Below are positions 672-52,982 of a DNA stretch of 56,857 nt, piece by piece. The position numbers were made by a program, and so were the translations under genes. The stretch's first letter is position 1; the number at the start of each line of letters is the position of its first letter. The stretch is from positions 62,001 through 118,857 of the forward strand of contig CAUYUJ010000061.1 of the NCBI GenBank assembly GCA_963575745.1, given 5' to 3'. Source of the stretch: Prorocentrum cordatum (lineage: Eukaryota). The notes beneath the pieces were generated by a model that was given only the letters and a program-made list of their open reading frames with translations, ran no database searches and had not been told where the DNA came from.

Positions 672-1793
672 ATGGCGCTTCCAATGTCGGGCAGCCGTCG
701 CAAGAGGGAAGACGAGGGGGCTGATGACATGGACGCTGAGAATCAACTAGATGCTGATATCCACGAATTGGCTTTCGACGAAAAGAATCCCATGCAACAA
801 TTCTTCAACATGGGGAAAGCGCAACTGCAGCAGCAAAGAATTACTGACCGCAAGGTGACAGGCATGGTTAATGATATGGCTACCATGCAACGGCGGCAGG
901 ACAGTGCTGAACGACGAATGGCTGAAGGCCAGGCTCAGATGGATCAACGAATGACAGATCTTGAGAAGCAGGTTTTGGAGCTCAAGTCTCATTCTGCTGC
1001 AGGTTCTGGGGTATCCACGGGTGCTACTTCTGGTGGCTTTGGGGGTGAGGCGACTTGGCCAAACGAGGCCAGGCGTCCATTCCGAGCCTTCAATCCAGAG
1101 TGGATCGATTTTCGTGGATGGGTGGTCGACTGGAAGAATCCGATTCGACGGTCAGAACAAATGATTTCAGATCGTGACGTTGGCATTCTCATTCACAACT
1201 TGAAGATGAGCCTCCCAGAGGATGACCGTGCAAAGATTGATGAGCTTGGCACGCTTCGTATGAATGGGAATCGTCCTAACTTCGCAGACTTCCGCATCAA
1301 GTTTACCACTGGTACTGAGTCAGACGTGCTCTGGAGGTGCAAAAAGTTTTGGGATGAAGCTCTGATCCCGCCTGAGGATCGAACTGAGGAGCAAAGGTCT
1401 CGAGCCCGTCCGACGCCACAGGACCTTTTCAAAGACATGGACAACAGACCGTGTGCGGCTGGAGGCTCCATTCGGATCAAGACACAGGCACCGCCATGGA
1501 AAGAAGACCACATCAATGCTGTTGGCAGATTCCATGGTGTTTGGCGCGATACGGTCATTGCGAAGAATCCTGAAACGACAATGAAGATTAAGGGAGTCCC
1601 TGGGAGTGGAAAGGGGGTCAGTGTGATGTGGACCATTCCCCCATGTCTCCGTACCAAAAGAAGCATGGAGCTGGCCAAGTGGAAACAGGATACGGGCACT
1701 TGGACTGTTGATCAGACGGTCTGGAACGAAGTTGTCATGACATACGGCATCGCCACGACCCATAAGGAAATGGAGGATGCACTCGGACAATGA
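672..1793 (+). CDS. LINE-A ORF1 (coiled-coil, putative nucleic-acid chaperone)
   Basis: The frame is open from 453 and the first plausible ATG is at 672. There is a heptad-like segment VTGMVNDMATMQRRQDSAERRMAEGQAQMDQRMTDLEKQVLELK followed by a mixed alpha/beta region. It lies directly 5' of the RT ORF. Function is inferred from position and by analogy to LINE ORF1p. Confidence 0.75.
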   Translation: MALPMSGSRRKREDEGADDMDAENQLDADIHELAFDEKNPMQQFFNMGKAQLQQQRITDRKVTGMVNDMATMQRRQDSAERRMAEGQAQMDQRMTDLEKQVLELKSHSAAGSGVSTGATSGGFGGEATWPNEARRPFRAFNPEWIDFRGWVVDWKNPIRRSEQMISDRDVGILIHNLKMSLPEDDRAKIDELGTLRMNGNRPNFADFRIKFTTGTESDVLWRCKKFWDEALIPPEDRTEEQRSRARPTPQDLFKDMDNRPCAAGGSIRIKTQAPPWKEDHINAVGRFHGVWRDTVIAKNPETTMKIKGVPGSGKGVSVMWTIPPCLRTKRSMELAKWKQDTGTWTVDQTVWNEVVMTYGIATTHKEMEDALGQ

Positions 1794-1817
1794 GGGTGCT
1801 GCGAGAGATCCAGAAGC

Positions 1818-4800
1818 ATGGCTCTCGCTACTCTCGCGGCAGGCACACTCAATGTTGCGAGAGCTGGGCGGCTCGAGTCTCGGGCATACGCTATTCTACG
1901 AGCACTACATGGGGTAGGCTTAAATGTTGTGGCTTTGCAAGAATGTCAAAACGTTGACTTCAATGACACCTTAATTCAGCGTCTGGGGTGGGATGCTGTT
2001 TCAAAAAGTACTTGCATGCGGGCAGTGGTGCTTCTCAAACGTCGCCACCTGCCCCACGTGATATGCTCTTATCAAGCAGATCGAGTTGCGATGATTGTTC
2101 ATCGATCGGGAGTTTGTTTCACTAGCGCTTATTTTGCTGATGCGTCTCATCCAGACGCTCCAGAGATATGCAGACGGATACTGCATGATGTACGCCGCCT
2201 GCATCGACAGGCTCAGGCCAACCATGGCCACCACTTTCGCTTGTTGCTTGCTTGTGATGCCAATGTGGAGCTCACGCCAGAGTTGGAGGTAGATGGGAGG
2301 AGGGTGACGGGACCAGGACTCAGAAGATCGAGGGAGAGGGGACTTGGTCGGAACGGGGCCATTGATTTGGAGGACAGGAGGGCCAAGGAGGTGTGCATGA
2401 GGGACCAGATTGAGGAGTTCTTGGAGGAGGAGGAGCTGGCTGCGATCAACACTTTTGAAGCACGGGTCCCGACCTACTGGCACTTTGGTGAGAGCGAGCC
2501 CACAAAGGTCTTAGATTACATCTTGGCGCCCAGGCAGTGGACAGTAAAAGATCTCTCGTACAGTTGGTTGCAGGACGGGCGCGTGGCACGTTTGAGCGAT
2601 CATGCAGTGATCAAAACCCTGTTGGCCCCAAGGGAACCCCAGGAGATGTACCGACACCAGGTTGTTCGGCCACACGTCACGGCACGCCGGGCATTCGAGT
2701 CCCACAGAGAGGAGTTCTGTTTCAGAGCGTTGGTGAACATTGGTATTGAGGCCACACGCCCTGAGGAGATCGCGAAGTCTTTACATCAGCATGCGTTGCC
2801 TTTGCTCAACCCGCCTTCCTCTGCGCATCGTGCACATGCTAAGTCCAAAGAGCTAGCAGATCTTCAGCATCAGTATCGTGCAGCCCGTGGGAATCGTGAT
2901 GAGAGAAAGCGCCTGAGGGAACTTATGAGGCCCCTGGTCAATGCAGATAGGCGTAGTGAGATCGAGTATACCTTCGCGAACCCTCGCAAAAGCAAGAAAG
3001 TGAATGCCAAGTCTCTGAAGATCGACGGGGAGATGACGGAGGATCGTAAGAGGTGGGTGGAGGAGGGGATGAAGCAGCACAGCTTGAACACGATGACGAG
3101 CGAAGAGGAGAGGATGAGGAACAGCGAGCTGGTATCAGACTTACGACGACGTGCACGAGCAGCTAGGGCACACAGCAGCAGCAGCACGATGCACGACATG
3201 CGCATGCAGCTCACGATGGGGGTGGTGAACGAAGCACGTGCACGATTGAGATCTGGCAAGAGCTGCGGTCCTGATGGGGTCAGCGTGGAGCTCTTGAAGG
3301 CTTTGGCGTGGCGAGCTGTTCGCCAGATCTTCCATGTGTTTCGGGATATCTTTGATGGTCATCGTCGGTCACCTGATTGCTGGAGAGAGGTACTCATCAC
3401 GCTGATGCCCAAGCTTGTGAATCTAGATTCGCTCACACAAACACGCAATATAGTTGTACAGAACACGTTAGGAAAGTGGTACCTCACCTGTGTTACTATC
3501 CTTATCGAGAGGCATGCTGAACAGTACATGGGGCGATTGGGCTTGTATGGATTCGCACAGGATCGGAGGACGTGGGAAGTAGCGGGACCCCTTAAGGCCA
3601 TCTCACAGCATGCGAGCGTATGGGGGAAAGATAGGAAAGCGTTCTTCTGTTCATGTGATATAGCACGAGCCTTCGACCATGTTAAGCTCACTACCTTGGC
3701 ACGCGCGATGCACATGCTTAACATACCAGTACAGCTACAATATGCTATGATCGAGCCCTTAACTGACACGACGGGCACGCTCACGTTCGAGGGCCTGGAG
3801 TTAGGTGGGGTACGATGGGATCGCTCTCTCAGAACGGGGGGTACCGAATCTCCGCTGTGCTTTAACTTGGTGGTGTTGGCCATGTGGGCGGAGGTCATAG
3901 AGCGGTGGGATAACGAACGTATAGGTGTGGAGATCCCGTACAGCAACATGCACGACATGACGCGCGCACATATTTACAATCATGCGATATGGGCAGATAA
4001 CATATATCTCGTGGCCAGTACATCGGCTCAGATGCAGCTGATGATCAACACACTTACTCACGCTTTACGTACATGGGAACTAGAGTGGAAGTCAGATTCA
4101 CTTGAATCGATGGTGGTGGGCGACCGCGATACCACTACTTTCTTTGCTGATATCCAGGGGGTGCAGGTCCCATTCAAGTCAGTCTCTCAGCTGAATGTGT
4201 TGGGAACGGTCGTCTCGCAGCAGTACGGGGGCACGCACGAAGACATACAATTTCGGGTTGAGTGTGCACGACGCGCGTTTTATGGGCAAGCTAAGTATTA
4301 TCGTTGTCGTGCTCTCCCTCTTCGTAAGCGGTATCGACGGTATCAGAGCCTGGTACAGAGTGTATTAGCATACGGTCTGGATACATGTACGCTGGACCCT
4401 GAAGGTGTTCGATTGCTTCATACCTTTGAGGGCAGATGCCTACTGGCCATGCATTGTCGACGGAAGCCTGCGGGACAAAGATGGGAGGTCTGGAAGCCCG
4501 ACATGCTTGACACAGCGAGGGCTTCTTTCTGCTCGCTGGGATTTCCTAGCATCGTCCAGATCGTGGCGTGGAAGAGTTGGAGTGTCGCGCATTCGGTCAG
4601 CACGGTTTATGGCAATTTTGACTTCACAAATCCTGGGCCTCCCCGGTGGAGAGGCCCAGGTTCAGGAGTAAATTGTGAGGATGGGGTCTCGAGCGGCTCC
4701 CAGCACAATGATGGCGTCGACGGCCGACGTGTTGCACGCAAGATTGAGCCACATCCTGATACCACGAGACGTGCATTCGTTGATTCTCGCACGGCACTGC

Positions 4801-5840
4801 TTTGTACACACAAGACTTGGGAAGCGCACCGCATGGCCCTCACAGAATGTCTCCGCTGTCATGGAGATCGTAGGCGCGCCTCTGAAGGAAAACGGCTGCG
4901 TGCTGGAGGGGATAGTGTTGGGCAGCGGACTTGGCAGTACCCGTACATACAGATTCATGGGGATGAATGGTGGGAGACCTTCCGACCAGGATATGCCACA
5001 TTTCTGCAGACATGGGAAGCACTTTTACGCACGTATGGTAGGCCTAAGATATTCGAGTACTTCTGCACGAATTGGAAACATGTACCAGGAGGAGTTGTTG
5101 GGAGAGAATGTAAGGAGGGAACAGGAAGGAACGAGGAGGCGACGGAGGAGGAGAACATGAAGCAAGCAAGACGTTTGGCGATCATCAATGAACGGGAAGC
5201 TGTGTTTGATATTATGTCGAACGGAGTTGGCATTGAGATCAAGGGAGACTCTTTGCTGGTTCAGAGCTGGCTTACGGGGCGTTGGCGTTGTCATAATCGT
5301 GCATATCGTGAGCGTGTACACAGGTGTGTCAACGACATGTACGCACTTAGCTTATCACACCGAGCACGGGCATCGAACGTTGGGCGAGACATATTTGTAC
5401 ATGAATTTCGTGAAGCAAACACCCGAGCAGACGAACTTACTCATTTGGCCAGAGATGGCCACACATTTCATCATAACTATTGCCATCGATATCCTTTCGA
5501 ACGAGACTCTTTAAAGGTAGTCGCCTGTCGTGGAGGGTACGACGGGGGAGTGTGCAGCAAGGGCAGTGCGTGCGGTTACTGGATGCAGATTGGCTATCTC
5601 AACATGTCTTCGCGGGCGTCTCGGCATGGAGTGTATTCTACACGATACTCCCCTTACCCGACCTCTTCTTCTCTACATTATCATGCTGACACACCGTTGA
5701 TTTGGAGAGACGCTGCTGCTGCTGCTTGGTTGGAGCCAGGCGCCACGATCACCGAATGTGAGTTGTCCGCTGCCGAAGCATTGACACGTGCCATACGCAT
5801 ACAGCTTCAGCAATTTGATGACAGCGATTTTGCTTCTTGA
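1818..5840 (+). CDS. LINE-A ORF2: APE endonuclease - reverse transcriptase - permuted RNase H (1340 aa, intact)
   Basis: APE motifs: GTLNV, ALQEC, CDANV, VLDYIL, LSDHA. RT motifs: KSCGPDGV, YGFAQDR, DIARAFDHV, RTGGTESPLCF, WADN (3990-4001), VLGT. RNase H motifs: GDS (5244), REANTRAD (5409-5432), YDGG (5538), TECEL (5751). Confidence 0.95.
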   Translation: MALATLAAGTLNVARAGRLESRAYAILRALHGVGLNVVALQECQNVDFNDTLIQRLGWDAVSKSTCMRAVVLLKRRHLPHVICSYQADRVAMIVHRSGVCFTSAYFADASHPDAPEICRRILHDVRRLHRQAQANHGHHFRLLLACDANVELTPELEVDGRRVTGPGLRRSRERGLGRNGAIDLEDRRAKEVCMRDQIEEFLEEEELAAINTFEARVPTYWHFGESEPTKVLDYILAPRQWTVKDLSYSWLQDGRVARLSDHAVIKTLLAPREPQEMYRHQVVRPHVTARRAFESHREEFCFRALVNIGIEATRPEEIAKSLHQHALPLLNPPSSAHRAHAKSKELADLQHQYRAARGNRDERKRLRELMRPLVNADRRSEIEYTFANPRKSKKVNAKSLKIDGEMTEDRKRWVEEGMKQHSLNTMTSEEERMRNSELVSDLRRRARAARAHSSSSTMHDMRMQLTMGVVNEARARLRSGKSCGPDGVSVELLKALAWRAVRQIFHVFRDIFDGHRRSPDCWREVLITLMPKLVNLDSLTQTRNIVVQNTLGKWYLTCVTILIERHAEQYMGRLGLYGFAQDRRTWEVAGPLKAISQHASVWGKDRKAFFCSCDIARAFDHVKLTTLARAMHMLNIPVQLQYAMIEPLTDTTGTLTFEGLELGGVRWDRSLRTGGTESPLCFNLVVLAMWAEVIERWDNERIGVEIPYSNMHDMTRAHIYNHAIWADNIYLVASTSAQMQLMINTLTHALRTWELEWKSDSLESMVVGDRDTTTFFADIQGVQVPFKSVSQLNVLGTVVSQQYGGTHEDIQFRVECARRAFYGQAKYYRCRALPLRKRYRRYQSLVQSVLAYGLDTCTLDPEGVRLLHTFEGRCLLAMHCRRKPAGQRWEVWKPDMLDTARASFCSLGFPSIVQIVAWKSWSVAHSVSTVYGNFDFTNPGPPRWRGPGSGVNCEDGVSSGSQHNDGVDGRRVARKIEPHPDTTRRAFVDSRTALLCTHKTWEAHRMALTECLRCHGDRRRASEGKRLRAGGDSVGQRTWQYPYIQIHGDEWWETFRPGYATFLQTWEALLRTYGRPKIFEYFCTNWKHVPGGVVGRECKEGTGRNEEATEEENMKQARRLAIINEREAVFDIMSNGVGIEIKGDSLLVQSWLTGRWRCHNRAYRERVHRCVNDMYALSLSHRARASNVGRDIFVHEFREANTRADELTHLARDGHTFHHNYCHRYPFERDSLKVVACRGGYDGGVCSKGSACGYWMQIGYLNMSSRASRHGVYSTRYSPYPTSSSLHYHADTPLIWRDAAAAAWLEPGATITECELSAAEALTRAIRIQLQQFDDSDFAS

Positions 5841-6663
5841 GGGTGTGTTATCCCTCCGCCCTCCTGGGCTCGGGAATCATTTTCAAGATTAGCCAAGTTA
5901 CATGACACCTCAGCCCGCCTCCGTGGGTAGGTGCTCGTTTCACTGCTGCTCAAATGCCTAGCTGCGTAGCTGACACGGGCTGCGCTGAAGACCAGCGCCT
6001 CGCCAGCCCGCGTAAACACAAAAACCAAGGTTGACGGTTTACCGCCGGCGCCCAGTAAGAGTAATTCGAAAACGCTGGCAGGCTAGTTGGCTCGAAAAAT
6101 CTCGACTGAACTTTTCACAACTTTGGCTCGGTTGAAAATTATGTTCTCGAAATTCAACAATTCGTTAGAGCTCTAGTATTTTTTCCCGTGATATTCGATC
6201 TTATTCCCGCTCGCCATCTTGATCTCAGCTCGATCGGGTGGGTATTACTATCGAAAAGCGTCATGGCGGGATCGGCCGTTCCGAGTCATTTTGTCACGCG
6301 CTGTCGGTTTTCTCAAGATAACTCGGGCTTCAGGACAGCTACAGAGCTAGTAAGCACATCTGATCGATCCAGAATGATCAGGCGCGTTCGCCTGTTGAAC
6401 CCAGAGGTCTGAACTCGGTCTGCTAGCCGAGCCAGGTCCGCAAACCTATTCGTATTATTCGAGTAATCTCGACAGACGCTCTCGGTTTTCTGTACTTAAC
6501 TCGAGCTACAGGACAGCTACAGAGCTGATGCGTACAGAATCTGATTCAGCATCATCAGTGGCCGTTCTCTGTTGAATCCAGACCTCTGAACTCGGTCTGC
6601 TGCCCGATCTAGAATCGCGAAACTATTCGTATTGTTCGAGTCATCTTGAGAGATGCTGTCAGT

Positions 6664-7724: not shown

Positions 7725-9614
7725 TTTCTGCACTTAACTCGGGCTGTGTGGGGGGGGGCTGCATGGCTGGTAATCATTGGAATCGATTTGGAGACATCAG
7801 GGGCGTCCGCCTGTCGAATCGAGAGCTCTGAACTCCGTCTGCTGCCCGAACTAAGTCCGCAGAACTATTCGTATTGTTCGAGTCATCCTGAGGGCTGCTG
7901 TGGGTTTCCTGCACTTAGCTCGGGCTGTAGGGGGGCTGCAGGGCTGGTAATCACAGGAATCGATTCAGAGACATCAAACGTGTATGCAGGGGTCTGAACT
8001 GGGTCTGATACTCAAGCTAGGTTTGCCAAACTATTCGTATTGTTCGAGTCATCTTGAGAAGTGCTGTCGATTCACGCACGTAACTCGGGCTGTAGGAGAG
8101 CTACAGAGCCTGTACAGAACACAATCCAGAAGCATCGGGGGCGTTCGGCTGTTGCATCCGAGAGGTCTGCAATTGCTTGGGCTGAAAGTTTATTTTTTCT
8201 GTGTAATATTTTCCGACATTACATGTTGTCAGGAAGCTCTACGAGTCCCCCGGCGGTAACAAAGGTTGACGGTTTACCGCCGGCGCCCAGTTGGCCCAGC
8301 CGGCCGAGGCGGACGATGTGGCAACTTTTGGGTGGTTTTGCAATTTTTTTGAAAGATATTTGACAGTTCATTTTGAGAAAGCAGATTTTTACTCCGAGCA
8401 TTGAGATATAAACTTTGTTCCCTGAGCAGCTCAGCCCTCTAGAGTCATTTTCAGTACCAGTTCATTTGGAGGAACCGACTTCATGTTGACTCCGAAAAAT
8501 CTCAACTTGAAGTTTTTCTAGAAAAGCTCCCAGAAGCTCCCGCTTTGATGCTGAGCTTTCTCACGGATGCAAGGAGCTCTACGAGGTTCCCGGCGGTGAC
8601 CAGATTGACGGTTCACCGCCGGCGCCAGTTCCGGGGCGCTGGAGATCTAGTTGGCAAGAAAAATCTCGACGGACCTTTTGCTGACTTTTGGTCGGTTGAA
8701 AATTTTGTTCTCGAAATTCAACAATTCGTTTGAGCTCTAATATTTTTCCCGTGATATTCGATCCTATTCCCGATCGCCATCTTGATCTCAGCTCGATCGG
8801 GTACCTTTTACTGCCAAAAAGCACTCCGGCGGGATCGGCCGTTTCGAGTCATCTTGATACGCGCTGTCGGTTTTCTGAAGATAACTCGAGCTTCAGGACA
8901 GCTACAGAGCTGGTAAGCACAGCTAATCGATTTAGAATGATTAGGCGCGTTTGCCTGTTGAATCCAGAGGTCTCAACTCGGTCTGCTAGCCGAGCTAGGT
9001 CCGCAAACCTATTCGTATTATTCGAGTCATCGTAGCAGGCGCTCTCGGTTTGCTGTACTTAACTCGAGCTGTAGGGCAGTTACAGAGCTCATAGTCACAG
9101 AAATCGATCGGGAATTATCGGGCGCGTTCGGCTGTTCAATCGAAAGCTCTGAACTCGGCCTGCTGCCCGAGCTAGGTCCGCGAAGCTATTCGCATTGTTC
9201 GAGTTATCTTGAGAAGTGCTCGCGGTTTTCTGCACCTGGTCACAGAAATCGATTTGGAAACATCAGGCGCGTCCGTCTGTCGAACCGAGAGCTCGAAACT
9301 CGGTCTGCTGCTCGAACTAGCTCCGCGAAACTATTGTATTATTCAAGTCATCCTGAGAGCTGCTGTCGGTTTCTGCACTTAACTCGGGCTGTAGCGGGGC
9401 TGCAGGGCTGGTAATTCCAGGAGTCGATTCACAGACGTTAGACGCGTCCGCCTGTCGCATTCAGAGGTCTGAACTCGGTTTGACACTCGAGCTGGGTTCC
9501 AAACTGTTCGTTTTTTTGCCAGAGTCATCTTGAGAGGTCTGGCTTGGGCTGAAATTCTCTTGAATTTCTTTCCACATTATATACTGTCAGGAAGCTCTAC
9601 GAGTCCCCGGCGGT

Positions 9615-9845: not shown

Positions 9846-9863
9846 AGGTGCCATGGCGCCATC

Positions 9864-12800
9864 GTGGGCACGTATAACGTGAGGCGCTGTGGCAGCATGA
9901 ACAGCCACGACATGCTTGCTCAGATCAAGACCTCGAATTCGGAAGTTCTCGCTTTGCAGGAGTGCCAGTTCCTTGGAATAGGTAGGTGCTCTGAGCATGG
10001 TTTCACCTTAACTCTTTCTAATGATGGGAAGGCCGGGGTTCTCTACAAGAGGGTGTGGAGAGCCTCCATACGTGAATGCATCAGGGGTAATCGTTATGTC
10101 ATTCTCGTGTTTCAATCGTTGATTGTTGCCAGCTTGTACTTACCACATGCGCCGAAAAAAGGGGATCACAATATCTTATTCACACAAACATTGCAGTCGT
10201 TTCGAAAGGATTTGGATACGCTCCGAGTTAGGTTTCCCAAGGAAGGGTGGGACTTGTTCATCGGGATGGATGCTAACGTTGAGCTTCTGCCTCACACGGT
10301 ATTTGGAGATGTTGCTTTGACTGGTTCTGCAGTGCAGGGTGAGAGATTTGAAGAAGGGGACAATGCAGGAGGAGGTGGACGTGGAGGTTTCCAGCAGGGT
10401 AGGAGGAGGATGCAACAATACATGTGTGACGAGCTCTGTGAATGTATGTGGCATTATGATTTGGTTTTCTCGAATTCTTTTGGGACCCGTCGTACGACCT
10501 GGAAGGCCAGGGAGGAGACGGAGGAGGAGGACAAGGTTCTTGATTACCTGTGTATTCCGAGCTCCTGGGAAAGGCCTCAGTGGGAGGTGTCGTGGTTAAG
10601 GCCAACACTCAGGGGCTCCGTGGACCCCAGAAAGACCCGCCTGTCGGACCATGCCCTGCTCACCTTGCTTGTCCCCGAATCGGCCGCTCCGACTCGACGT
10701 TGGAGAACGAAGCCACGACAAACGTTCACTCATTGGTGCTGCGACGAAGCCTCGGAATTGCAAGTTTCGGCTAACCTTGATCGTCGTTTGCATGCTGCAG
10801 CTCGTTACCCATCTGGTCTCTGCCCGGATGAATTGGCTCCTGTTATCTTGAATGCATGTACACAGGACAAGGAGTCATACACCAATGTCCCAAAGAAAAT
10901 GCAGATCCCCAAAAAGACAGATCGTCATAAGGAACTTGATGATGAATATCGCCGACTGCGTCGTGAAGGAGGGGAGGAGGAGGAGCTCATCAGGGTTAAG
11001 AAAGAGAGAAGGAAGGAGATGCGTGCACACACTCGTCGTCGACTCGAATACGATCATCGTGACGGGAAGCTCGCTCGGACGGTGGTGGACAAATTGAGTT
11101 ATGACGATGTGCTCACGGAGGATAGGGAGTTGTGGGAGAAGGCGCTCTATGCTCACGGGTTCGCCAAGTACCACTGTGCTGCGCAAGGGATACGTAACGT
11201 GGAGTGTATCGAGGAGAGGAGGAGGAGGAGGTTGCAGGACACGAACACAGTGGACGTCTCCCCCATTTCCATGTCCGTATTGTTACAGGCACGATCACGC
11301 TTAAAGTGTGGTAAGGCGGTGGGTAAGGACGGAGTTTCTCCTTCTATGTTGAAACGTATCACGTGGGTAGGTTTGCGTCATATTCTTCGGTTATTCCAAG
11401 ACCTGTATCTTCAACGGTATCCTACTCCTCGGATTTGGTCTGAGTTGCTTGTGGTGTTGATGCCGAAAGCTAAAGATATCACTAAGTTGTCTGATACTCG
11501 TGCTCTCGTCTTACTTAGCAGCCTAAGCAAATGGTATACTTCATGTTTGGTTGAGATTGCTGAAGGTTATCTGAAAAGGGTCCCACAATATCTACATAAC
11601 TACGGATTTTGCAAGGGAAGGCGCACGCACGAGATCACTGCCATGCTTAAGCATGCCACCACACACGCTCTGGAGTGGGGGAAAGATGAGACCCTGCACC
11701 TCGCGTCATTAGATGTGCAGACTGCCTTTGATAACGTCACGGTTGAGAAGGCCAGTCGGGCCTTGGATGCCATCCCTGGGTTCCCCAATGACCTTGCGTT
11801 GGCGCTACTCGCTCCCAGTATCCTGGACACAGCGGACTTTACCTTTCAGGACTCCACGGCGACGGGTATTCCCTGGGATGCATGTGTACGTACTGGTAGT
11901 GTGGAGGCCCCCTTCCTGTGGAAGTGTGTGACACTACTGATGTGGGATAGGATTGTACTGAATTGGGAGGAGGAGAAGTTGGGGTACGATTTGGGGGTGG
12001 AGGCTGGTGGGAGGTATCTTACTCATGCGCTCTGGGCCGATAACATTTTGCTTTTCTCGAAATCAAAGACTGAGCTCACACGTATGGTGGGGGACTTCTC
12101 GGCTCAGCTGTATACGCACGGTTTCAGATGGAAAGATTCCTCACTACACTATCTTGCCTTTGGGGAGGACTCTGAAGGCGCCTCGACGGGGAACCTCGTT
12201 GTCCAGGTGAACGATCTCGGTACCCTGTGTCTTCCGCGATGCTCTGAAATGGAGTGCCTGGGTTGCCTGGTCACGACCAAGACTGACAAACACCATGATG
12301 TGGCTTGGAAATTGGCTCGGGGTTGGAAGCGATTTAACCAGTTCCGCAAGTTTTATACGAATCGTGCTGTACCCTTCCAGAAGAAAATCAAGCATTATGA
12401 ATCTAGGTTGCGTAGTTTTGTACTTTTCGGTGTTGAAGGCATGCCAGCGGACCACCACACTTTGAAACAGTTGCACACGTGGGAAGGTAAAATATTGTGT
12501 TCTATGGTACGCCGCCCGAAACCTGCCGACATGGATTGGAGTATATACTTATGCAACTTGTACAAACGTGGGCGGCGTATGCTCCTGGAATTGGGACGGC
12601 CGTCTCTTGTGCAGCTATTCTTGTTTCGTCAGTGGCAGTGGGCTCAGGACTGTACGTTTACTGTGAAACGCCTGAACCCAACACCCGCACAGATTCCTCC
12701 AGGTACTTTTGATTCTTCAGGCAAGCCTGGCCCCAACGTCTTTGCTGCGTGTGAGCCACCGCCGGCCAAGAGACAACGTCAGGATGAACCCATGTATGTG

Positions 12801-14024
12801 CTACCAAGTATTGCGTGCTCGACATCAATGGGATGTCATCCTGACGTGTGTGAGACGATGCATGCTGTTGATTCCTTTGAGCTCCCTGGTTCTCAGACAC
12901 AATTACCCGCGCATCGGCGCAATCTGATTTCCCAGATGCATAAGCGTGCAAAGACATTCCATCCATCTCAGGATTCTCTGTCGCAAAAGCGTTCCTCTGT
13001 TGAGTTGCCGTCGCAGGAAATCGCTGCAAACAAGCGGCGACGGGTGGCTCCACCTCAGCATCGTAGTACAGGGGACTCGCATATGCAGGCTAGAGAATGT
13101 ATTTTTGCATGGTCGGGGGAGTGGACTGACCGACGGCAGGCCTTCATTGCATCGCTGCCTTGGAAAGAACGCCCATTAATGACGCGTCGGCATGAGGGGG
13201 GGAGACCACTGGCGTTGAGAAACTTCCATTACATTTTCGAGTTGGTATCAGGGAAGGATTGGTATCACACGTTATCCTTTTCACGTCAGGGATGGAAAGA
13301 ATTTCTGAAGCGGGCACTGGATGTTACTAACATGGAGGAGGCGTGGGGGTACTGTTACTTTAAACATGCACAACCTGCGGGATATGCTAGGGAGGAGGAG
13401 GAGAGGGAGAAGACGGAGGAGCAGCAAAGGAAGGAGGACGAGAAGATGGAGAAACGACTTGCGTACATTAATGAACATGCATCGGAGTGGAATGCGGAGC
13501 CTCGGGACTCGATACCGATGGAATTGATTGGGGACTCCGCCACAGGGGTGAATTGGATTAACGGTCTCTGGGCAACATCCAATATTATCTACAAGCACAT
13601 TCTTGGCGACATTCAAAATAGGCTGGAGCATATCTCTGTGTTGTATGGTATGAGGCCTCCGAGTTGGGGCCACAATATGTTCAAGTGGATCTATCGAGAA
13701 GGAAACGAAAGAGCTGACAGGCTGACATGGTTGGCCAGAACCAAAAATAGTTACGTTACGTTCCATACCTCACTTATTGAACATGCGAGTAAAACAAAAC
13801 TAGACGGCCTCCGTGGATTCTTCGACGGAGGTCGCTCTGTGGAGGGATGTGCTGCAGGATGGTGTATAGATTTGTGTGTACACGGGACGTGGCAGTTGGT
13901 GGCGGAGGAAGCTGTCTCGCTTGATGCCTCTGCTTCTGTCATGTTTTGTGAGATGATTGCAGCACAACGGCTCTGTATGGCCGTGGAGCACATTTTGGGT
14001 AGCATCTTTCATCCAAGCAGCTGA
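9864..14024 (+). CDS. LINE-B ORF2: APE - RT - permuted RNase H (intact frame, no in-frame ATG before the first APE motif)
   Basis: APE motifs: GTYNV, ALQEC, GMDANV, VLDYL, LSDHA. RT motifs: KAVGKDGV, YGFCKGR, DVQTAFDNV, RTGSVEAPFLW, WADN (12033-12044). RNase H motifs: IGDS, REGNERAD, FFDGG, MFCEM. The frame is open from 9846. Confidence 0.93.
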   Translation: MGTYNVRRCGSMNSHDMLAQIKTSNSEVLALQECQFLGIGRCSEHGFTLTLSNDGKAGVLYKRVWRASIRECIRGNRYVILVFQSLIVASLYLPHAPKKGDHNILFTQTLQSFRKDLDTLRVRFPKEGWDLFIGMDANVELLPHTVFGDVALTGSAVQGERFEEGDNAGGGGRGGFQQGRRRMQQYMCDELCECMWHYDLVFSNSFGTRRTTWKAREETEEEDKVLDYLCIPSSWERPQWEVSWLRPTLRGSVDPRKTRLSDHALLTLLVPESAAPTRRWRTKPRQTFTHWCCDEASELQVSANLDRRLHAAARYPSGLCPDELAPVILNACTQDKESYTNVPKKMQIPKKTDRHKELDDEYRRLRREGGEEEELIRVKKERRKEMRAHTRRRLEYDHRDGKLARTVVDKLSYDDVLTEDRELWEKALYAHGFAKYHCAAQGIRNVECIEERRRRRLQDTNTVDVSPISMSVLLQARSRLKCGKAVGKDGVSPSMLKRITWVGLRHILRLFQDLYLQRYPTPRIWSELLVVLMPKAKDITKLSDTRALVLLSSLSKWYTSCLVEIAEGYLKRVPQYLHNYGFCKGRRTHEITAMLKHATTHALEWGKDETLHLASLDVQTAFDNVTVEKASRALDAIPGFPNDLALALLAPSILDTADFTFQDSTATGIPWDACVRTGSVEAPFLWKCVTLLMWDRIVLNWEEEKLGYDLGVEAGGRYLTHALWADNILLFSKSKTELTRMVGDFSAQLYTHGFRWKDSSLHYLAFGEDSEGASTGNLVVQVNDLGTLCLPRCSEMECLGCLVTTKTDKHHDVAWKLARGWKRFNQFRKFYTNRAVPFQKKIKHYESRLRSFVLFGVEGMPADHHTLKQLHTWEGKILCSMVRRPKPADMDWSIYLCNLYKRGRRMLLELGRPSLVQLFLFRQWQWAQDCTFTVKRLNPTPAQIPPGTFDSSGKPGPNVFAACEPPPAKRQRQDEPMYVLPSIACSTSMGCHPDVCETMHAVDSFELPGSQTQLPAHRRNLISQMHKRAKTFHPSQDSLSQKRSSVELPSQEIAANKRRRVAPPQHRSTGDSHMQARECIFAWSGEWTDRRQAFIASLPWKERPLMTRRHEGGRPLALRNFHYIFELVSGKDWYHTLSFSRQGWKEFLKRALDVTNMEEAWGYCYFKHAQPAGYAREEEEREKTEEQQRKEDEKMEKRLAYINEHASEWNAEPRDSIPMELIGDSATGVNWINGLWATSNIIYKHILGDIQNRLEHISVLYGMRPPSWGHNMFKWIYREGNERADRLTWLARTKNSYVTFHTSLIEHASKTKLDGLRGFFDGGRSVEGCAAGWCIDLCVHGTWQLVAEEAVSLDASASVMFCEMIAAQRLCMAVEHILGSIFHPSS

Positions 14025-14283: not shown

Positions 14284-15329
14284 AACTCGTAGAGCTTCCC
14301 TTAGCAAGTTATTACTGGAAGCTAAGAGTAATCCCGGCGCGCTGGAGAGCTAGTTGGCAAGAAAAATCTCGACGGAACTTTTGGTGATTTTTGCTCGGTT
14401 GAAAATTTGGTTCTCGAAATTTGAGAATTCGTTAGAGCTCTAGTATTTTTTCCCGTGATATTCGATCTTATTCCCGCTCGCCATCTTGATCTCAACTCGA
14501 TCGGGTGAATATTACTTTCGAAAAGCACTGTGGCGGGATCGGCCGTTTTGAGTCATCTTCATACGCGCTGACGGTTTTCTGAACATAACTCGAGCTTTAG
14601 GACAGCCACAGAGCTGGTAAGCACAGCTAATCGATGTAGAATGATTAGGCGCGTTCGCCTGTTGAATCCAGAGGTCTGAACTCGGTGTATTAGCCGAGCT
14701 AGGTCCGCAAACCTATTCGTATTATTCGAATCATATTGACAAGAACTCTCGGTTTTCTGTACTTAACTCGAGCTGTAGAACAGGTACAAAGCTCATATTT
14801 ACAGAAAATGATTCAGAATCATTAGTTGCGTTTGTCTGTCGAATCCAGAGCTCTGAACTCGGTGTGCTGCCCGATCTAGAATCGCGAAACTATTCGTATT
14901 GGTCGAGTCATCTTGAGAAGTGCTCTCGGTTTTCTTCACTCAACTCGCTGAGGGGGGCTACAGGGCTGGTAATCAGAGGAATCGATTTGAAGACACCAGG
15001 CGCGTCCGCCTGTCGAATCCAAAGCTCGGAACTCGGTCTGCTGCCCGAATTAGGTTTGCGAAACTATTGTATTGTTCGAGTCATTCTGAGAGGTGCTGTC
15101 GGTTTTCTGCACTTAAGTCGGGCTGTCGGGGGCTGCAGGCCTGGTAATGACAGGAGTCGATTCGCAGACATCAGACGCGTCCGTCTGTCGCATTCAGTGG
15201 TCAAATAATACTCACTATGAGTCGGAATGTTGGTAGGTGCTGTCGGTTTTCTCAACTGAAGTTGAGCTAGGAAGCTCTACGAGTCTCCCGGCGGTAACCA
15301 AGGTTGACGGTTTACCGCCGGCGCCCAGT
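14284..15329 (+). mobile_element. Complete family-A Helentron-like copy (~1.05 kb)
   Basis: Perfect 15-bp subTIRs lie at 14285-14299 and 15270-15284, followed by the hairpin and CCCAGT. Internal repeat anchors fall at 14678, 14855 and 15029. Removal restores the host TGGGAAT|CATCAGGCGCG. Confidence 0.82.
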
Positions 15330-15419
15330 CATCAGGCGCGTTCGTCTGTTCATCGGAGCTCTGAACTCGGCCTGCTGCCCAAGCTAGATCTGCAAAACTA
15401 TTTGTATTGTTTGAGTCAT

Positions 15420-16462
15420 GACTCGTAGAGCTTCCCTAAGCTAGTTGCTGGAAGCTTAAGAGTAATTCCGGCGCGCTAGAGAGCTAGTTGGCTCGAAAAA
15501 TCTCGACGGAACTTTTGGTGACTTTTGGTCAGTTGAAAATTTTGTTCTCGAAATTTGAACATTCGTTAGAGCTCTAGTATTTTTTCCCGTGATATTCGAT
15601 CTTATTCCCGCTCGCTATCTTGATCTCAGCTCGATCGAGTATTACTATCGAAAAGCACTGTGGCTGGATCGGCTGTTTTCAGTCATCTTGATACGCGTTG
15701 ACGGTTTTCTGATCATAAATCGAGCTTTAGCACGGCTACAGAGCTGGTAAGCACAGCTAATCGATCTAGAATAATTAGGCGCGTTCGCCTGTTTAATCCA
15801 GAAGTCTGAACTCGGTCTGTTAGCCGAGCTAGGTCCGCAAACCTATTCGGATTATTCAAGTCATCTTGACAGACACTCTCGGTTTTCTGCACTTAACTCG
15901 AGCTGTAGGACAGCTACAGAGCTGAAGTTAACAGAAACTGATTCAGAATCATTAGTTGCATTTGTCTGTCGAATCCAGAGCTCCGAACTCGGTCTGCTGC
16001 CCGATCTAGAATCGCGAAACTATTTGTACTAGTCGAGTCATCTTCAGAAGTGCTCTCGGTTTTCCTCACTCAACTCGCGCTGAGGGGGGCTACAGTGCTG
16101 ATGGTCACAGGAATCGATTTGGAGAATCAGGCGCATCCGGCTGTCGAATCGAGAGTTCCGAACTCGGTCTGCTGCCCGAATTAGGTCTGCGAAACTACTG
16201 TATTGTTCGAGTCATCCTGAGAGGTGCTGTCGGTTTTCTGCACTTATCTCGGGCTGTAGAGGGGGCTGTAGGGCTGGCAATGACAGAAGTCGATTCGCAG
16301 ACTTCAGACGCGTCCGCCTGTCGCATTCAGAGTTCACAAAATATTCACTATAAGTCGGAATGTTGGTAGGTTCTGTCGGTTTTCTTGACTTAAGTCGAGC
16401 TAGGAAGCTCTACGAGTTCCCCGGCGGTAATCAAGGTTGACGGTTTACCGCCGGCGCCCAGT
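15420..16462 (+). mobile_element. Complete family-A Helentron-like copy
   Basis: SubTIRs lie at 15421-15435 and 16403-16417, followed by the hairpin. Internal repeat anchors fall at 15808, 15985 and 16160. Removal restores the host GAGTCAT|CTTGAGAAGTG. Confidence 0.82.
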
Positions 16463-17359: not shown

Positions 17360-20052
17360 TTTGATGACTTTTGGTCGGTTGAAAATTTGGTTCTCGAAAT
17401 TTAACAATTCGTTAGAGCTCTCGTATTTTTTCCCGTGATTTTCGATCTTATTTCCGCTCGCCATCTTGATATCAGCTCGATCGGGTACCTTTCACTGCCA
17501 AAAAGCACTGCGGCAGGATCCCCCGTTCCGGGTCATCTTGTCACGCGGTGACGGTTTTCTCAAGATAACTCGAGCTTCAGGGCAGCTACAGAGCTGGTTA
17601 GCGCAGCTAATCGATTCAGAATGATCAGGCGCGTTCGCCTGTTGAACCCAGAGGTCTGAACTCGGTCTGCTAGCCGAGCTGGATCCGCAAACGTATTCGT
17701 ATTATTCGAGTCATCGGTTTTCTGTACTTAACTCGAGCTACAGGACGGCTACAGAGCTGATGCGTACAGAATCTGATTCAGAATCATCAGTGGCCGTTGT
17801 CTGTTGAATCCAGAGCTCTGAACTCGGTCTGCTGCCCGATCTAGAATCGCGAAACTATTCTTATTGTTTGAGTCATCTAAAGAGCTGCTGTCGTTCTCTG
17901 CACTTAACTCGGGCTGTCGGGGGGGGGGCTGCATGGCTGGTAACCAGCGGAATCGATTCGGAGACATCAGGCGCGTCCGCATTTCGAATCGAGAGCTCCG
18001 AACTCTGTCTGCTGCCCGAACCAGGTTCGCCAAACTATTCTTATTGTTCGAGTGATCCTGAGAGGTGCTGTCGGTTTCCTGCACTTGACTCGGGCTGTAG
18101 GGTGGCTGTAGGGCTGGTAATGGCAGGAATCGATTCAGAGACATCAGACGCGTGCGCCTGTCGCATGCAGAGGTCTGAACTCGGTCTGATACTCGAGCTA
18201 GGTTTGCCAAGCCATGCGAATTGTTCGAATCATCTTGAGAGGTGCTGTCGATTTACGAACGTAACTCAGGCTGTAGGAGAGTTGCAGAGCTCGTACAGAA
18301 GACAATCCAGAAGCATCGGGGGCGTTCGGCTGTTCCATCCGAGAGGTTTGAAATTGCTTTGGCCGAGGAACTTTTTTTTATGTGTATTTTTTTTCGACAT
18401 TATATGTTGTCAGGAAGCTCTACGAGTCCCCCGGCGCAACAAAGGTTGACCGTTTACCGCCGGCGCCCAGTGATGACTTTTGGTCGGTTGAGAATTTTGT
18501 TCTCGAAATTCAACCATTCGTTAGAGCTCTAGTATTTTTTCCCGTGATATTCGATCTCATTCCCGCTCGGCATCTTGATCTCAGCTCGATCGGGCACCTT
18601 TTATTGTCAAAAAGCACACGGGCGGGATCAGCCGTTTTGGGTCATCTTGATATGCGCCGGTTTTCTCAAGATAACTCGAGCTTCAGGACAGCTACAGAGC
18701 TGGTAAGCACAGCTAATCGATTCAGAATGATCAGGCGCGTTCGCCTGTTGAACCCAGAGGTCTGAACTCGGTGCTAGCTGAGCTAGGTCCGCAAACCTAT
18801 TCGTATCATTCGAGTCATCTTGACAGACGCTCTCGGTTTTCTGTACTTAACTCGAGCTACAAGACAGCCGCAGAGCTGATGCGTACAGAATTTGATTCTG
18901 AATGATCAGTGGCCGTTGTCTGTTGAATCCAGAGCTCAGACGTCGGTCTGCTGCCCGATCTAGGTTCGCCAAACTATTCGTATTGTTCGAGTCATCTTGA
19001 GAGATGCTGTCGGTTCTCTGCACTTAACTCGGGCTGTAGGGGGGCTGCATGGCTGGTAATCACTGGAATCGATTCGGAGACATCAGGCGCGTCTGCCTTT
19101 CGAATCCAGAGCTCCGAACTCTGTCTGCTGCCCGAACTAGGTCCGCGAAACTATTTGTATTGTTCGAGTCATTCTGAGAGGTGCTTTCGGCTTCCTGCAC
19201 TTAACTCGGGCTGTAGGGGGGCCGCAGGGCTCGTAATCACAGGAATCGATTCAGAGACATCAGACGCGTCCGCCTGTCGCATGCAGAGGTCTGAACTCGG
19301 TCTGATACTCGAGCTAGGTTTGCCAAACTATTCGTATTGTTCGAGTCATCTGGTGTTGGCGATTTACGCACGTAACTCGGGCGGTAGGAGAGCTACAGAG
19401 CTCGCACAGAAGACAATCCAGAAGCATCGGGGGCGTTCGGCTGTTGCATCCGAGAGGTCTGGAATTTTTTGGGCTGAGAAATTTTGTTTCTTTGTATTTT
19501 TTTCGACATTATATGTTCTCAGGAAGCTCTACGAGTCCCCCGGCGGTAACAAAGGTTGACGGTTTACCGCCGGCGCCCAGTTCCGGCGCGCTGGAGAGCT
19601 AGTTGGCAAGAAAAATCTCGACGGACCTTTTGCTGACTTTTGGTCGGTTGAAAATACCTCATAGAGCTCTTCGGCATCGATGAGCTAGAGGAATTCCGGC
19701 GCGGGGTGGAGCTAGTAACTCGTAGAGCTTCCCTTAGCAAGTTATTGCTGGAAGCTTAAGAGTAATTCCGGGGCGCTGGAGAGCTAGATGGCAAGAAAAA
19801 TCTCGACGGACATTTCGGTGACTTTTGGTCGGTTGAAAATTTTGTTCTCGGAATTCAACCATTCGTTAGAGCTCTAGTTTTTTTTTTTTCCCGTGATATT
19901 CGATCTTATTCCCGCTCGCCGTCTTGATCTCAGCTCGATCGGGTACCTTTTACTGCCAAAAAGCACTGCGGCGGGATCGCCCGTTTCGGGTGATCTTGTC
20001 ACGCGGTGACGGTTTTCTCGAGATAACTCGAGCTTCAGGGCAGCTACAGAGC

Positions 20053-22947
20053 GTTACGGTATCAAGCACCTCATTGTGCAGGGGCGGATATCTGAGGACA
20101 GGGAGGAGTGGGTGGAGGAGATCAGAGCACATACCAGACAGAGATATACTTCGGAGGAGGTCAGAGGACGGGATATGGAGATGTTGGAGGAGTTGAGGAG
20201 GGATGCGCAACATAACCTATGTGACGGGTACTGCACTGAGGGACTGACAATGGCGGTGGTATGCCAGGCACGGTCACGTCTCAAGTCCAGGCGTGCCACT
20301 GGTCCCGACAGGCTGCCTTGTGAAATACTCAAGGCATTGCCGTGGGCGACTTTGCGTGGCGTAGCTCGGATGTTTGATGAGATATTTCGCTTGACACGGC
20401 AGTATCCGCAGGACTGGAGGCAGATTTTGATCGCCTTCATGCCCAAGCTGCCGAGCTTGACATCACTGACAGATGCACGGTACCTCTGTCTGCAAAACAG
20501 TCTCAGCCGTTGGTATTCTGCTTGTGTGGTGATCCTGGTGGAACAATTTGTGTTTCGGGCTGGCCTCGTGGGACCCTTGGGAATCTATGGCTTCCAGGAG
20601 GGACGTAAGACGGTGGAAATTGTGGGGGCCCTCAAGGCTCTGGCTCAACATGGGGACATCTGGGGAAAGGATCAGACGGTCCATATCGCTAACGCCGACA
20701 TCAAACAAGCGTTCGACCATTGCAGCCTTCAAAACGCCAAGCGAGCTATGGGCCATGCCAATATTCCTGCCTATCTCCAGTATGCTTTGCTTGCACCGCT
20801 GGTTTGCACTACGGGGTCGTTAGTTGTCGAGGGTATGGCCATTCACGACATCAACTGGGACGTCTGTATACGGACGGGCGGCCCTGAGGGGCCTCTTCTC
20901 TTTAACCTTATCATATGTGCCATGTGGGGACCTATATTTCGGGATTGGGACAGTAGAGGAGTGGGGTATGTGCTGGAGGGCGTCTGTGGAGAGTATGAGC
21001 GACGGACAGTCGTGAACCACTTTGTGTGGGCGGAGAACTGCTACCTTGTCTCTGCCTTCTCAACTGTGCTGGCTCAGATGATGCACGATCTAACCCTACC
21101 ACTACATGACTGGGGGATGAGATGGAAGGATAGCAGCCTGTTGTATATGACATGTGGGGAAAATGCGAGAGTGGATGGTGACGGACATATTCTTGCCAGT
21201 GAGGATTTGTGTATACCTGCGTGCTCGAGATATCAGGACTTTAGACTTCGACGGGTGTGCAGAATGAAAGTATTGGGTCATGAGATTTTCTCCACCTACC
21301 TAGTGCCCGCTCATCCTGATGTGGAATATCGCATCAAGGAGGCTCGTGCTTGTTTCATTGGTCAGTCGGATTTCTTTCGTAACAGAGCGGTAGCTGTTCG
21401 TGATAAGTTTTGTCGTTATCAAGACAAGGTGCAGAGTATGGCGTTTTATTGTATAGAGACATGTGCTGCTGATACTTCCTCGCTACACATGCTCAATGCC
21501 TTCGAGGGATGGTGTTTGTGCCGTATGTTTCGGCGGCCGAGGAGGGAGGGGGAGACTATGGCGGACTGGAACCGACGACGGTACCACGAGGCCAGAGAGC
21601 AATTTCGATCTTATGGATTTGCGAGTTTGGTGCAGCGATTTCTCCGTATGGTGTGGAACTCCGCTAAGGATGCTGCAGATTTCATTTCTGTATTGTGTAC
21701 TGCTTCACATGAGGAAATATCTTCGGCGCAACGTACGTGGAGAGATCACCACATGACGACGGTTGCATGCGGTCCACTGTGGGACAGGCTCAGGACGGAT
21801 GCGTCGGAATGCCTGCGGAGTATGTTTCACTTCGAGGAGGCTTCGCAGCTAAAAAGGAGACATGCTAGCTCAGGTCGAGCTATTGGCCAGAGATGCTGGC
21901 TATTTTCTTTCTGTGAATTCTACGGACTCAAATGGTGGGAGTCCTTTGTGCCGACAGATGCTGCGTATGTTCAGTTCTGCGAACGCATGTGTACACGGAC
22001 GATGCCGAGTTATTTTCGGAAAAGAAAAGGGTGCGGTACAACAGGTGGGGCCCTGCAGGAGGTACATACTATCACACAAAACGACCTACGCACTTATGGG
22101 GCTCAAGAGGGCACTGCGGCTCTCAACGACAAACTGGCCAAACGTATCGCGTTACAAGATATGAAGGAGGTTGAGTACGACCTCGACTCTTTTGGGATCC
22201 CTTTGTACATTTCTGGGGACAGTCTTCTGGTGGTGTCTTGGCTTCAGGGTGTCTGGAGGGTGCTTAGTCGTACATATCAGGATAGGATCAACAGAATGAT
22301 TAACCAACTTGACAACATGTGTCAGAGGTTTGGAATTAGGCCTGCCTGTCATGGGAGGGAATTTGTCGACCACACATATAGGGAATGGAACACGCGTGCA
22401 GATGTACTCACTCATACGGCCCGTGTCGGGCCACCAGTGATTCGAGATAGGATAGGGCTTTACGCCCCTCAGTTACAACAGGTGTTTCGCGTTTGTGCCA
22501 TCAGAGCTGGATTCGATGGTGGCGTCTTGCGACGGCGTAGGAGTCGGGTGCTGGATAGATGTTGGACGGATATCGAGGCTCTCAAGGCAGCCACTCAGCC
22601 ATGGGATTATATGGACGGAGGTGTATAGTGTGGCGTTCTCGATTGATCCAACTTCAACAGTGACTGATGCCGAGATCTCGGCCGTTGAGCATACGATTAT
22701 AATCTTGCCGCGGGTTGTACAAGCGTATTTCGGACAGGATATGATGTGATATTGATTGTGCTCACTCACGCCATGCCTTTGTTTGTCGTGTGTGTGTGTG
22801 CTTGACCTCTCATCCTCCTAATAAGAGTTGGCTTTCGCCTCTGATCGTTTGGATCGGTGAGGCTTCCGCCTACTCCCGATGCGCCCGCTCCTTGCTTCCG
22901 ACTAGGCTGGAAAGCCTGCACAGTCGACCGCAAAGTCCGCAAAAAAG
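20053..22947 (+). mobile_element. LINE-C: 5'-truncated non-LTR retrotransposon; 3' end at the hairpin loop
   Basis: It starts abruptly after host CAGCTACAGAGC (20052). It ends CCGCAAAGTCCGCAAAAAAG, followed by AAAGGTTGACGGTTTACCGCCGGCGCCCAGT (to 22978). Confidence 0.88.
20055..22749 (+). pseudogene. LINE-C ORF2 fragment (RT + permuted RNase H; APE missing; frameshift near 22527)
   Basis: RT motifs: RATGPDRL, YGFQEGR, DIKQAFDH, RTGGPEGPLLF, WAEN (21027-21038). RNase H motifs: SGDS, REWNTRAD, GFDGG. Homology then continues in another frame (CDGVGVGCWID...TDAEISAV, ORF 22495-22749). Confidence 0.85.
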
Positions 22948-25900: not shown

Positions 25901-26237
25901 GAGCTCTACAAGGCTTCCGGCGGTGACCTGATTGACGGCTTACCGCCGGATCCCAGTGAGAAAGATATTTGTCAATTCATCTTCACAAAGCAGATTTTAC
26001 GCTGAGCATGTGCATATAAGCTTTGTTCTCAGAGCAGCTCAGCTCTTCCGAGGGATTTTACTATCGGTTGACTTCCAGGAACCGGCCTCATATTGACATC
26101 AAGAATGGAAAAGTGAAGATTTTAAGAACATCTTCTGCGCAGTTGTCTGCTTAGTTTCTGAGCAGTCTTATACGTGCCAAGAGCTCTACGAGTTTCCAGG
26201 CGGAGACCAGGTGGACGGTTCACCGCCGGCGCCAGTT

Positions 26238-29200: not shown

Positions 29201-29403
29201 CAGGACTGTCGGTGGCAGAATGGCGTCGGCCGCCGCGCGTTTATGATCCCGTCTCATTGTGCAATCACGCAGGCTGGCTTAGCATCCGCTGAAAGTCTTC
29301 TTAGGGGTATCTCAGAGCTTGCTTCTCGGATTAGATTCGGAGTCGCTACTCTCAGTAGTTCTGCCTCCGTGGAGGCTCGAACCTACGCCGCAGAACCGCG
29401 GGG
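26238..29403 (+). pseudogene. LINE-D: decayed, 5'-truncated non-LTR retrotransposon of the same group, flanked by hairpin-motif copies
   Basis: Fragments occur in several frames: FSDHKLL (end of APE), RAAGSDGLP, RTGSMEAPALW, WLDN (27467-27478), VRWLNGKYRCHN, YREGDEEAD, CFDGG. The D..AFD block appears deleted near 27220. A degenerate motif is present on both sides (26207-26237, 29404-29436). Confidence 0.82.
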
Positions 29404-37329: not shown

Positions 37330-43020
<5,691 letters not shown>

Positions 43021-52340: not shown

Positions 52341-52374
52341 TGGTCTGCCGTGCTCCTGTGTGGTCTGCCTTGCT

Positions 52375-52980
52375 CCTGGGGGGCAAACCAGCAACACGTC
52401 AAGAAGTTACCCAGGGGACCAATCAGCAACACGTCAAGAAGTTATCCTGGGGGGCAAACCAGCAACACGTCAAGAAGTTATCCCGAAGGGGCAAACCAGC
52501 AACACGTCAAGAGCGAGCTGAGGGGGGCAAACCAGCAACACGTCAAGAAGTTATCCTGGGGGGCAAACCAGCAACACGTCAAGAAGTTATCCTGGGGGGG
52601 GCAAACCAGCAACACGTCAAGAAGTTATCCTGAGGGGGCAAACCAGCCACAGGTCCAAAAGTTGCTGAGGGGGGCAAACCAGCAACACGTGAAGAAGTTA
52701 TCCTGACGGGGCAAACCAGCAACACGTCAAAGGTTATCCTGAGGGGGGCAAACGAGCAACACGCCAAGAAGGGGCTGAGGTGGTCGACCACCAACACTTC
52801 AATAAGTTACCCTGAGGCAAAACCAGCCACTCGCCAAGAAGTCATCCTGAGGGGGCAAACCAGCAACACGTCAAGAAGGTGCTGAGGGGACAAACCAGCA
52901 ACACGTCAAGAAGGTATCCTGGGGGGGGCAAACCAGCAACACGTCAATGCGGTATCCCGAGGGGACCAAACCAGCAACAC
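52375..52980. repeat. ~33-35-bp minisatellite GGGGCAAACCAGCAACACGTCAAGAAGTTATCCT
   Basis: Direct reading of tandem copies; recurs at 56025-56220. Confidence 0.9.
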
Positions 52981-52982
52981 CA

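Follow-up and report, generated by a model that had tools for sequence, protein, structure and literature searches.

The question raised by this locus is whether a retroelement protein can end in a ribonuclease H (RNase H) whose two halves are encoded in reverse order. The window, namely the whole stretch of 56,857 bp of Prorocentrum cordatum DNA that was analysed (contig CAUYUJ010000061.1, positions 62,001–118,857), contains four diverged long interspersed nuclear element (LINE)-like elements, designated LINE-A to LINE-D, which all lie on the + strand within its first 30 kb. The last ~200 amino acids (aa) of their second open reading frame (ORF2) very probably constitute a single RNase H type 1 domain, circularly permuted and archaeal-like (Pfam RVT_3). 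The predicted chain would run from strand 4 (GDS) through helices B/D, strand 5 and helix E (RE.N..AD) to a new linker of ~18 aa, and from there through strands 1–3 (FDGG) and helix A (AE) to the end of the protein. Few nuclease folds have been studied as thoroughly as RNase H, which also serves as a standard marker for classifying retroelements. If the proposed permutation is true, the RNase H active site can assemble from halves made in reverse order, and these LINEs carry a sequence marker overlooked by standard domain models.

Motif Order in the Four LINE Copies

A first-pass annotation, made from the sequence alone, had proposed a permuted motif order in all four LINEs, and the motifs GDS, RE.N..AD, FDGG and AE could indeed be read in this order in A, B, C and D. 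In LINE-A, the motifs are GDSLLV (5244–5261), REANTRAD (5409–5432), GYDGG (5535–5549), SACGYW (5565–5582) and TITECELSAA (5745–5774). The positions annotated for the first two were correct, whereas GYDGG begins at 5535 and not at 5538, and TITECELSAA at 5745 and not at 5751. LINE-B is more compact than LINE-A, with IGDS at 13527, REGNERAD at 13695, FFDGG at 13818 and FCEMIAA at 13944. LINE-C contains SGDS (22212), REWNTRAD (22380), GFDGG (22509–22523) and DAEISAV (22666); a one-base frame change is located right after GFDGG (near 22524) and the domain resumes at 22525. The four acidic residues, said to be retained in A, B and C, are all present in each of them. In LINE-D, RRDDQIVV (28805), YREGDEEAD (28968), CFDGG (29100) and a weak helix-A piece (29207–29329) keep the same order, as expected of the degenerate version, with the pieces spread over two frames.

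Hidden Markov models (HMMs) of the first half (H1) and the second half (H2) were compared with the six-frame translation of the whole window at an i-E-value of up to 1. They matched four places only, each on the + strand and with the GDS..AD half leading. For the first half the i-E-values ranged from 3e-30 to 3.5e-10, for the second from 4.7e-25 to 3e-6; values that low place the motif pattern far beyond chance.

In LINE-A, the first half (5223–5465; H1 i-E 3.8e-29) equals the canonical C-terminal half and comprises strand 4, helices B/D, strand 5 and helix E (E35–41 to H100–110 in the predicted structure, model A, described below). Its GDS aspartate (5247–5249) is the equivalent of Escherichia coli D70, and the aspartate of RE.N..AD (5430–5432) that of D134. 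The new connection between helix E and strand 1 (5466–5516) is modelled as a short strand (E115–118) and a short helix (H123–127). The second half (5517–5813; H2 i-E 1e-16), equal to the canonical N-terminal half, comprises strands 1–3 and helix A (E130–144, E147–160, E193–204 and H209–235), with the YDGG aspartate (5541–5543) as the D10 equivalent and the CEL glutamate (5760–5762) as that of E48. LINE-A alone has a Ser/Tyr/Pro-rich insertion of ~30 aa between strands 2 and 3 (~5604–5699), which was modelled at low confidence (predicted local distance difference test, pLDDT, below 50 at residues 167–176).

The corresponding halves of LINE-B are located at 13509–13751 (GDS to NERAD; H1 i-E 3e-30; RVT_3 profile positions 64–119 of 123) and 13803–14003 (FDGG to CEM; H2 i-E 4.7e-25; E157–169, E172–183, E186–197 and H203–226 in model B). 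The LINE-C halves occupy 22194–22424 (H1 i-E 1.3e-26) and 22509–22719, the latter being split by the frame change (H2 i-E 3.4e-9 for 22525–22719). Both halves of LINE-D lie in two frames, the first at 28790–29024 (28790–28867 and 28878–29024; H1 i-E 5e-4 and 3.5e-10) and the second, which is degenerate, at 29085–29329 (29085–29156 and 29207–29329; H2 i-E 3.1e-6 and 6.4e-4). All these parts are on the + strand.

Similarity to RNase H Type 1

In order to collect relatives, the last 230 aa of LINE-B were searched against 1.84 billion cluster representatives, and 118 proteins matched at E ≤ 0.001. A profile of the family was compared, by means of hhalign, with two reference alignments, one of 81 E. 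coli-type sequences and the other of the RVT_3 type, assembled from five genome loci and every fifth of 120 listed homologues. In the native order, the profile gave two separate matches to the RVT_3-type set, of 67 columns each (E 1.6e-7 and 1.1e-4). With the halves swapped, a single match of 133 columns was obtained (probability 97.6%, E 4.5e-12); such a full-length alignment was what the first-pass annotation had named as support for a permutation. The swapped profile also matched the E. coli-type alignment over 132 columns (probability 89.1%, E 2.2e-6), compared with 15 and 56 columns at a probability below 35% in the native order. Similarity to RNase H type 1 over the whole domain was thus reached only in the swapped order. 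In the swapped alignment, the Asp of FDGG, the Glu of AE, the Asp of GDS and the Asp of N..AD fall on E. coli D10, E48, D70 and D134, respectively. For the second half alone, the hhalign probability was 73% (E 3e-5).

A scan of all circular cut points, at every six columns, had its minimum at the native order (51.1, 67 columns) and its maximum in the linker between helix E and strand 1, before FDGG (81.2, 139 columns, E 1.4e-12). The best cut corresponds to the canonical N-terminus.

The same pattern was seen when a profile of 33 relatives was searched against the PDB sequences. Halobacterium RNase H1 (4e19_A) was matched at E 4.4e-9 by two stretches, profile positions 146–211 on chain residues 66–127 and profile positions 54–129 on chain residues 134–198; the later part of the profile aligns to the earlier part of the enzyme, and the order is therefore swapped. 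The chains 3u3g, 4h8k, 3aly and 2ehg gave the swapped pattern too, with a second-half stretch that is not significant on its own (i-E 23 to 310), and 2lsn was matched by the second half only (E 0.049).

Pfam searches detected parts of the domain in some relatives. RVT_3 was matched at E ≤ 1 by 24 of the 33 alignment members. In the relative P0110, residues 6–40 match the RVT_3 positions 89–123 of 123 (26.1 bits, above the cut-off) and residues 63–128 match positions 2–59 of 141 of RNase_H (PF00075; E 1.5e-4). No Pfam match was found for 10 of 12 fragments containing the second half only; P0062 and P0110 match RVT_3 at the end of helix E, and P0110 also the start of the RNase_H profile. Two Prorocentrum cordatum clusters carry the UniRef label 'RNase H type-1 domain-containing protein', which indicates that automatic annotation detected an RNase H signal in some relatives.

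Several results weigh against the permuted RNase H. The second half alone is marginal against solved RNase H chains, with a best i-E-value of 0.043. LINE-A has no Pfam RNase H match even at E ≤ 10, either as the whole ORF2 or as C-terminal pieces, and the RVT_3 match of LINE-B reaches 14.6 bits, below the gathering cut-off of 21.6. A single-sequence phmmer search of the LINE-B domain against the PDB found no RNase H, and the canonical reference alignments used with hhalign are shallow in diversity. Pfam analysis of the whole ORF2 proteins of the window likewise gave no RNase H match. A conserved natural permutant would explain why these LINE ends come out of domain scans with no annotation or with only half of the domain annotated.

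The phmmer search of LINE-B returned MT-A70 proteins (E 0.02), and these matches were rejected as spurious. A word-indexed homologue search with LINE-A residues 1090–1347 gave no match, and one with the first-half alignment returned family members only and no canonical RNase H. A tblastn search of the LINE-A first half against plasmids gave no match.

Predicted Structure

Modeling by AlphaFold2 with the family alignment led to a confident single domain both for LINE-B (mean pLDDT 92.3, predicted template modelling score, pTM, 0.85) and for LINE-A (mean pLDDT 87.7, pTM 0.84). Model B starts with a long helix (16–48), followed by a strand that ends at GDS (61–67), two helices, a short strand and the N..AD helix (126–136). 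Then come a short strand and a helix, which form the new connection, three long strands from FDGG onwards (157–197) and the helix with the glutamate (203–226). Model A has the same elements plus the low-confidence insertion between strands 2 and 3. As modelled, this is the list of RNase H elements begun at strand 4, as a permutation predicts.

The halves could instead complement each other between two ORF2 molecules, with a domain-swapped dimer rebuilding two RNase H sites. We regard this as improbable, since the monomer models are compact and confident and the linker between the halves (9–33 aa in the relatives, median 18) is modelled as an ordered strand and helix.

A helical linker ending in RLA.INE had been noted upstream of GDS, and the models contain it as a long helix (16–48 in model B, 2–23 in model A). 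This helix, with ..KRLA.INE.. and then an almost invariant Trp, is conserved directly before the domain at 5124–5216 in LINE-A (..RLAIINE.., + strand; UP HMM i-E 2.8e-5) and at 13404–13502 in LINE-B. In the fold search it matched coiled coils only. Its role may be to cap the new N-terminus or to hold two molecules together.

None of the fold searches matched RNase H over the whole domain. This is expected of order-dependent aligners and was counted neither for nor against the permutation. RNase H chains appeared as weak half matches only, with values in a range that can be due to chance; they fit a permutation without proving it. Foldseek matches in the PDB to PelC and to hibernation-factor-like proteins (TM 0.25–0.28) were rejected.

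Conservation and Probable Function

The named sources of the relatives are Prorocentrum cordatum and a EukProt set labelled 'Pyramimonas sp.'. In all 99 of the 99 proteins having both halves (each at E ≤ 0.001) the GDS half comes first, so that the non-canonical order 4-B-D-5-E-linker-1-2-3-A is shared by these relatives and the four copies in the window. Among the proteins retrieved, this uniformity bears out the suggestion that the order is diagnostic for the LINE group. The junction between the halves is also spanned by contigs of other public runs, namely X11 record 16 (5222–5647) and X1 record 8 (5484–5840). X11, like X20, may be an RNA run.

In the alignment of 33 relatives, the GDS Asp, the Asp-Gly of FDGG and the AE Glu are invariant and R-E-x-N-x-x-A-D is at least 90% conserved. 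Among the non-gap residues of the larger set, the catalytic residues are kept in 105/108 (GDS Asp), 120/122 (AD Asp), 101/101 (DGG Asp) and 84/85 (AE Glu) sequences. Note that the protein P0122 (866 aa) aligns eight times over, in separate stretches, to query residues 135–168, which cover the linker and the beginning of strand 1; a repeat protein or noise from low complexity may account for this.

It is conceivable that the domain is a non-cleaving relic of a permuted RNase H, retained in ORF2 as a module with a structural role or for binding nucleic acids. The low Pfam scores of A and B would fit such a relic, as would the fact that many LINEs lack an RNase H of their own and use the host enzyme, as stated in the available text of PMC5348765. 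However, 97–100% of ~85–122 diverged sequences retain the four catalytic residues as well as the R-E-x-N in the last motif, and a non-catalytic module would not need this conservation; a relic therefore appears unlikely.

Most likely, the permuted RNase H is active and clears away the RNA template once target-primed reverse transcription is done; the prediction follows from the conserved catalytic residues and from the intact ORF2 of A and B. The two halves together would re-form the usual two-metal DEDD site, and the domain would cleave the RNA in the RNA:DNA hybrid that target-primed reverse transcription leaves behind. Such clearing of the template may in turn allow second-strand synthesis. 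Taken as a whole, we lean towards a natural, catalytically competent circular permutant that has become fixed throughout a clade of dinoflagellate-associated LINEs, has its termini at the junction of helix A and strand 4 and has gained a lineage-specific helix.

Absence of a Further RNase H Half

The first-pass annotation had stated that no N-terminal half precedes GDS. With the filters off, the second-half HMM gave no credible upstream copy in any of the proteins, five full-length ones included. A profile of the 300 aa upstream, built from 16 long relatives, scored a probability of 0.1% when compared with canonical RNase H and also with each of the halves. The conserved upstream helix resembles neither helix A nor the second half nor canonical RNase H, and no internal repeat emerged on self-comparison. 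Downstream, proteins with a complete second half (n = 78) continue for a median of 14.5 aa and for no more than 61 aa, too short a tail for a further half. None of the proteins scanned with the half-HMMs had an H2-H1 or H2-H1-H2 arrangement; three odd orders that appeared with the filters off consisted of overlapping matches at E 0.2–1 only and were rejected.

Tandem RNase H domains would require either a further half downstream or a degenerate canonical N-terminal half that went unrecognised upstream of GDS, for which the ~250 aa without a Pfam family between the reverse transcriptase and the domain would leave room; they are extremely unlikely given the upstream searches, the dissimilarity of the upstream helix to helix A and protein ends so close to helix A. 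With no extra half on either side, the domain is a true permutant rather than a fragment of a tandem pair, and the proposal of a naturally permuted RNase H is supported by this absence together with the swapped-halves alignment. A canonical archaeal-like RNase H would be the ancestor of the permuted form, and the simplest path from one to the other would be tandem duplication and subsequent loss of the outer halves; since neither a helix A relic nor an internal repeat was found, no relic supports the duplication.

Comparison with Known RNases H

The permuted domain was compared with archaeal-type RNases HI (RVT_3, PF13456), namely those of Halobacterium salinarum (4e19) and Sulfolobus tokodaii (2ehg/3aly), LC11-RNase H1 (3u3g/4h8k) and the N-terminal domain of Rv2228c (3hst). 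These enzymes provide the best sequence matches for both halves, and the domain shares with them the FDGG/AE/GDS/RE.N..AD motifs (FDG in the enzymes), the DEDD residues and the kind and length of the secondary-structure elements. It differs from them in the order of these elements, 4-B-D-5-E-1-2-3-A instead of 1-2-3-A-4-B-D-5-E, as well as in the ~18-aa linker from helix E to strand 1, the added N-terminal helix and the fusion to the end of a LINE ORF2. A more distant relative than the RVT_3-type enzymes is E. coli RNase HI (rnhA, PF00075). Once un-permuted, the domain aligns with it as given above and its four acidic residues are matched; however, the order is permuted and no alignment is apparent to the basic-protrusion region of the E. 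coli enzyme.

Some plant L1 and oomycete non-long terminal repeat retrotransposons carry archaea-like RNase H (aRNH) domains, as described in the available text of PMC5348765. The LINEs of the window are like them in having an archaeal-like RNase H on an element with a reverse transcriptase and a putative endonuclease, presumably for removal of the RNA template. Unlike them, these LINEs and their relatives have hosts labelled Prorocentrum cordatum and 'Pyramimonas sp.', and the plant and oomycete domains, compared here by description only, are described without a permutation ('permut' occurs 0 times in the available text of that paper). Nor does 'permut' occur in the main text of a survey of the RNase H-like superfamily (Majorek et al. 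2014, PMC3985635). Among the papers listed by searches of the openly accessible full-text literature, subscription-only papers being outside this scope, no permuted RNase H in a retroelement was found.

The permuted order offers a clean character for recognising this LINE lineage and extends the record of LINEs acquiring an archaeal-like RNase H beyond plants and oomycetes. In addition, it provides a natural test of how important chain order is for folding and catalysis in the RNase H fold, and a permuted profile could let annotation pipelines recover the domain.

Organization of the LINEs and the Rest of the Window

The four copies are 23–39% identical to each other at the protein level, which points to old relatives and not to recent duplicates. 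A and B are intact, C has one frameshift and D is broken. The ORF1 of LINE-A (351–1793, + strand, a stop-to-stop frame of 480 aa) matched no Pfam family. It ends with TGA at 1791–1793 and shares its frame with ORF2, so that a single in-frame stop lies between the two, the first ATG of ORF2 being at 1818 (window positions 1788–1820); readthrough or reinitiation is possible at this stop.

The ORF2 of LINE-A (1794–5840, + strand, stop to stop, 1347 aa, stop codon 5838–5840) consists of an endonuclease-like N-terminus, a reverse transcriptase, the region of ~250 aa without a Pfam family and the C-terminal permuted RNase H. For a putative apurinic-like (APE-type) endonuclease, Exo_endo_phos was matched in LINE-A only, at 18.8 bits (below the cut-off of 24.5) and over the last 45 profile positions alone. 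RVT_1 was matched at 38.9 bits in A and 37.8 bits in B, both above the cut-off of 29.6, and human LINE-1 ORF2p provides the closest solved chains for the reverse transcriptase region of LINE-A (E 1.6e-5). The region of ~250 aa (~4400–5120, ORF2 residues ~870–1110), which separates the reverse transcriptase from the RNase H, contains a Trp-rich stretch conserved in the relatives (alignment columns ~60–100) and has no similarity to RNase H. The ORF2 of LINE-B, in which RVT_1 was found, is intact (9846–14024, + strand, 1392 aa). LINE-C (20010–22628, + strand) has a frame truncated at the 5' end, and the broken LINE-D extends over ~26228–29330 (+ strand).

Every LINE copy is flanked by arrays of a ~177-bp repeat with 73–82% matches between repeat copies (6299–6657, 8843–9208, 14572–16259, 17552–19351 and 23196–23966). 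The co-oriented LINEs A–D may sit in, or target, this ~177-bp satellite. Further along the window, a microsatellite-like (TGA)n tract of 5.2 kb (37335–42509, ~1717 copies, 75% matches) was found, where the GC skew reaches 0.78. More tracts, of (GGA)n, (GAG)n, (CCT)n and (CCGCGC)n, are located at 32.5–36.5 kb and 42.5–49.9 kb. The right end of the window contains tandem arrays at 45616–46392, 52374–53226, 53680–55271 and 56022–56857, with periods of 73/146, 36/73, 20 and 197 bp.

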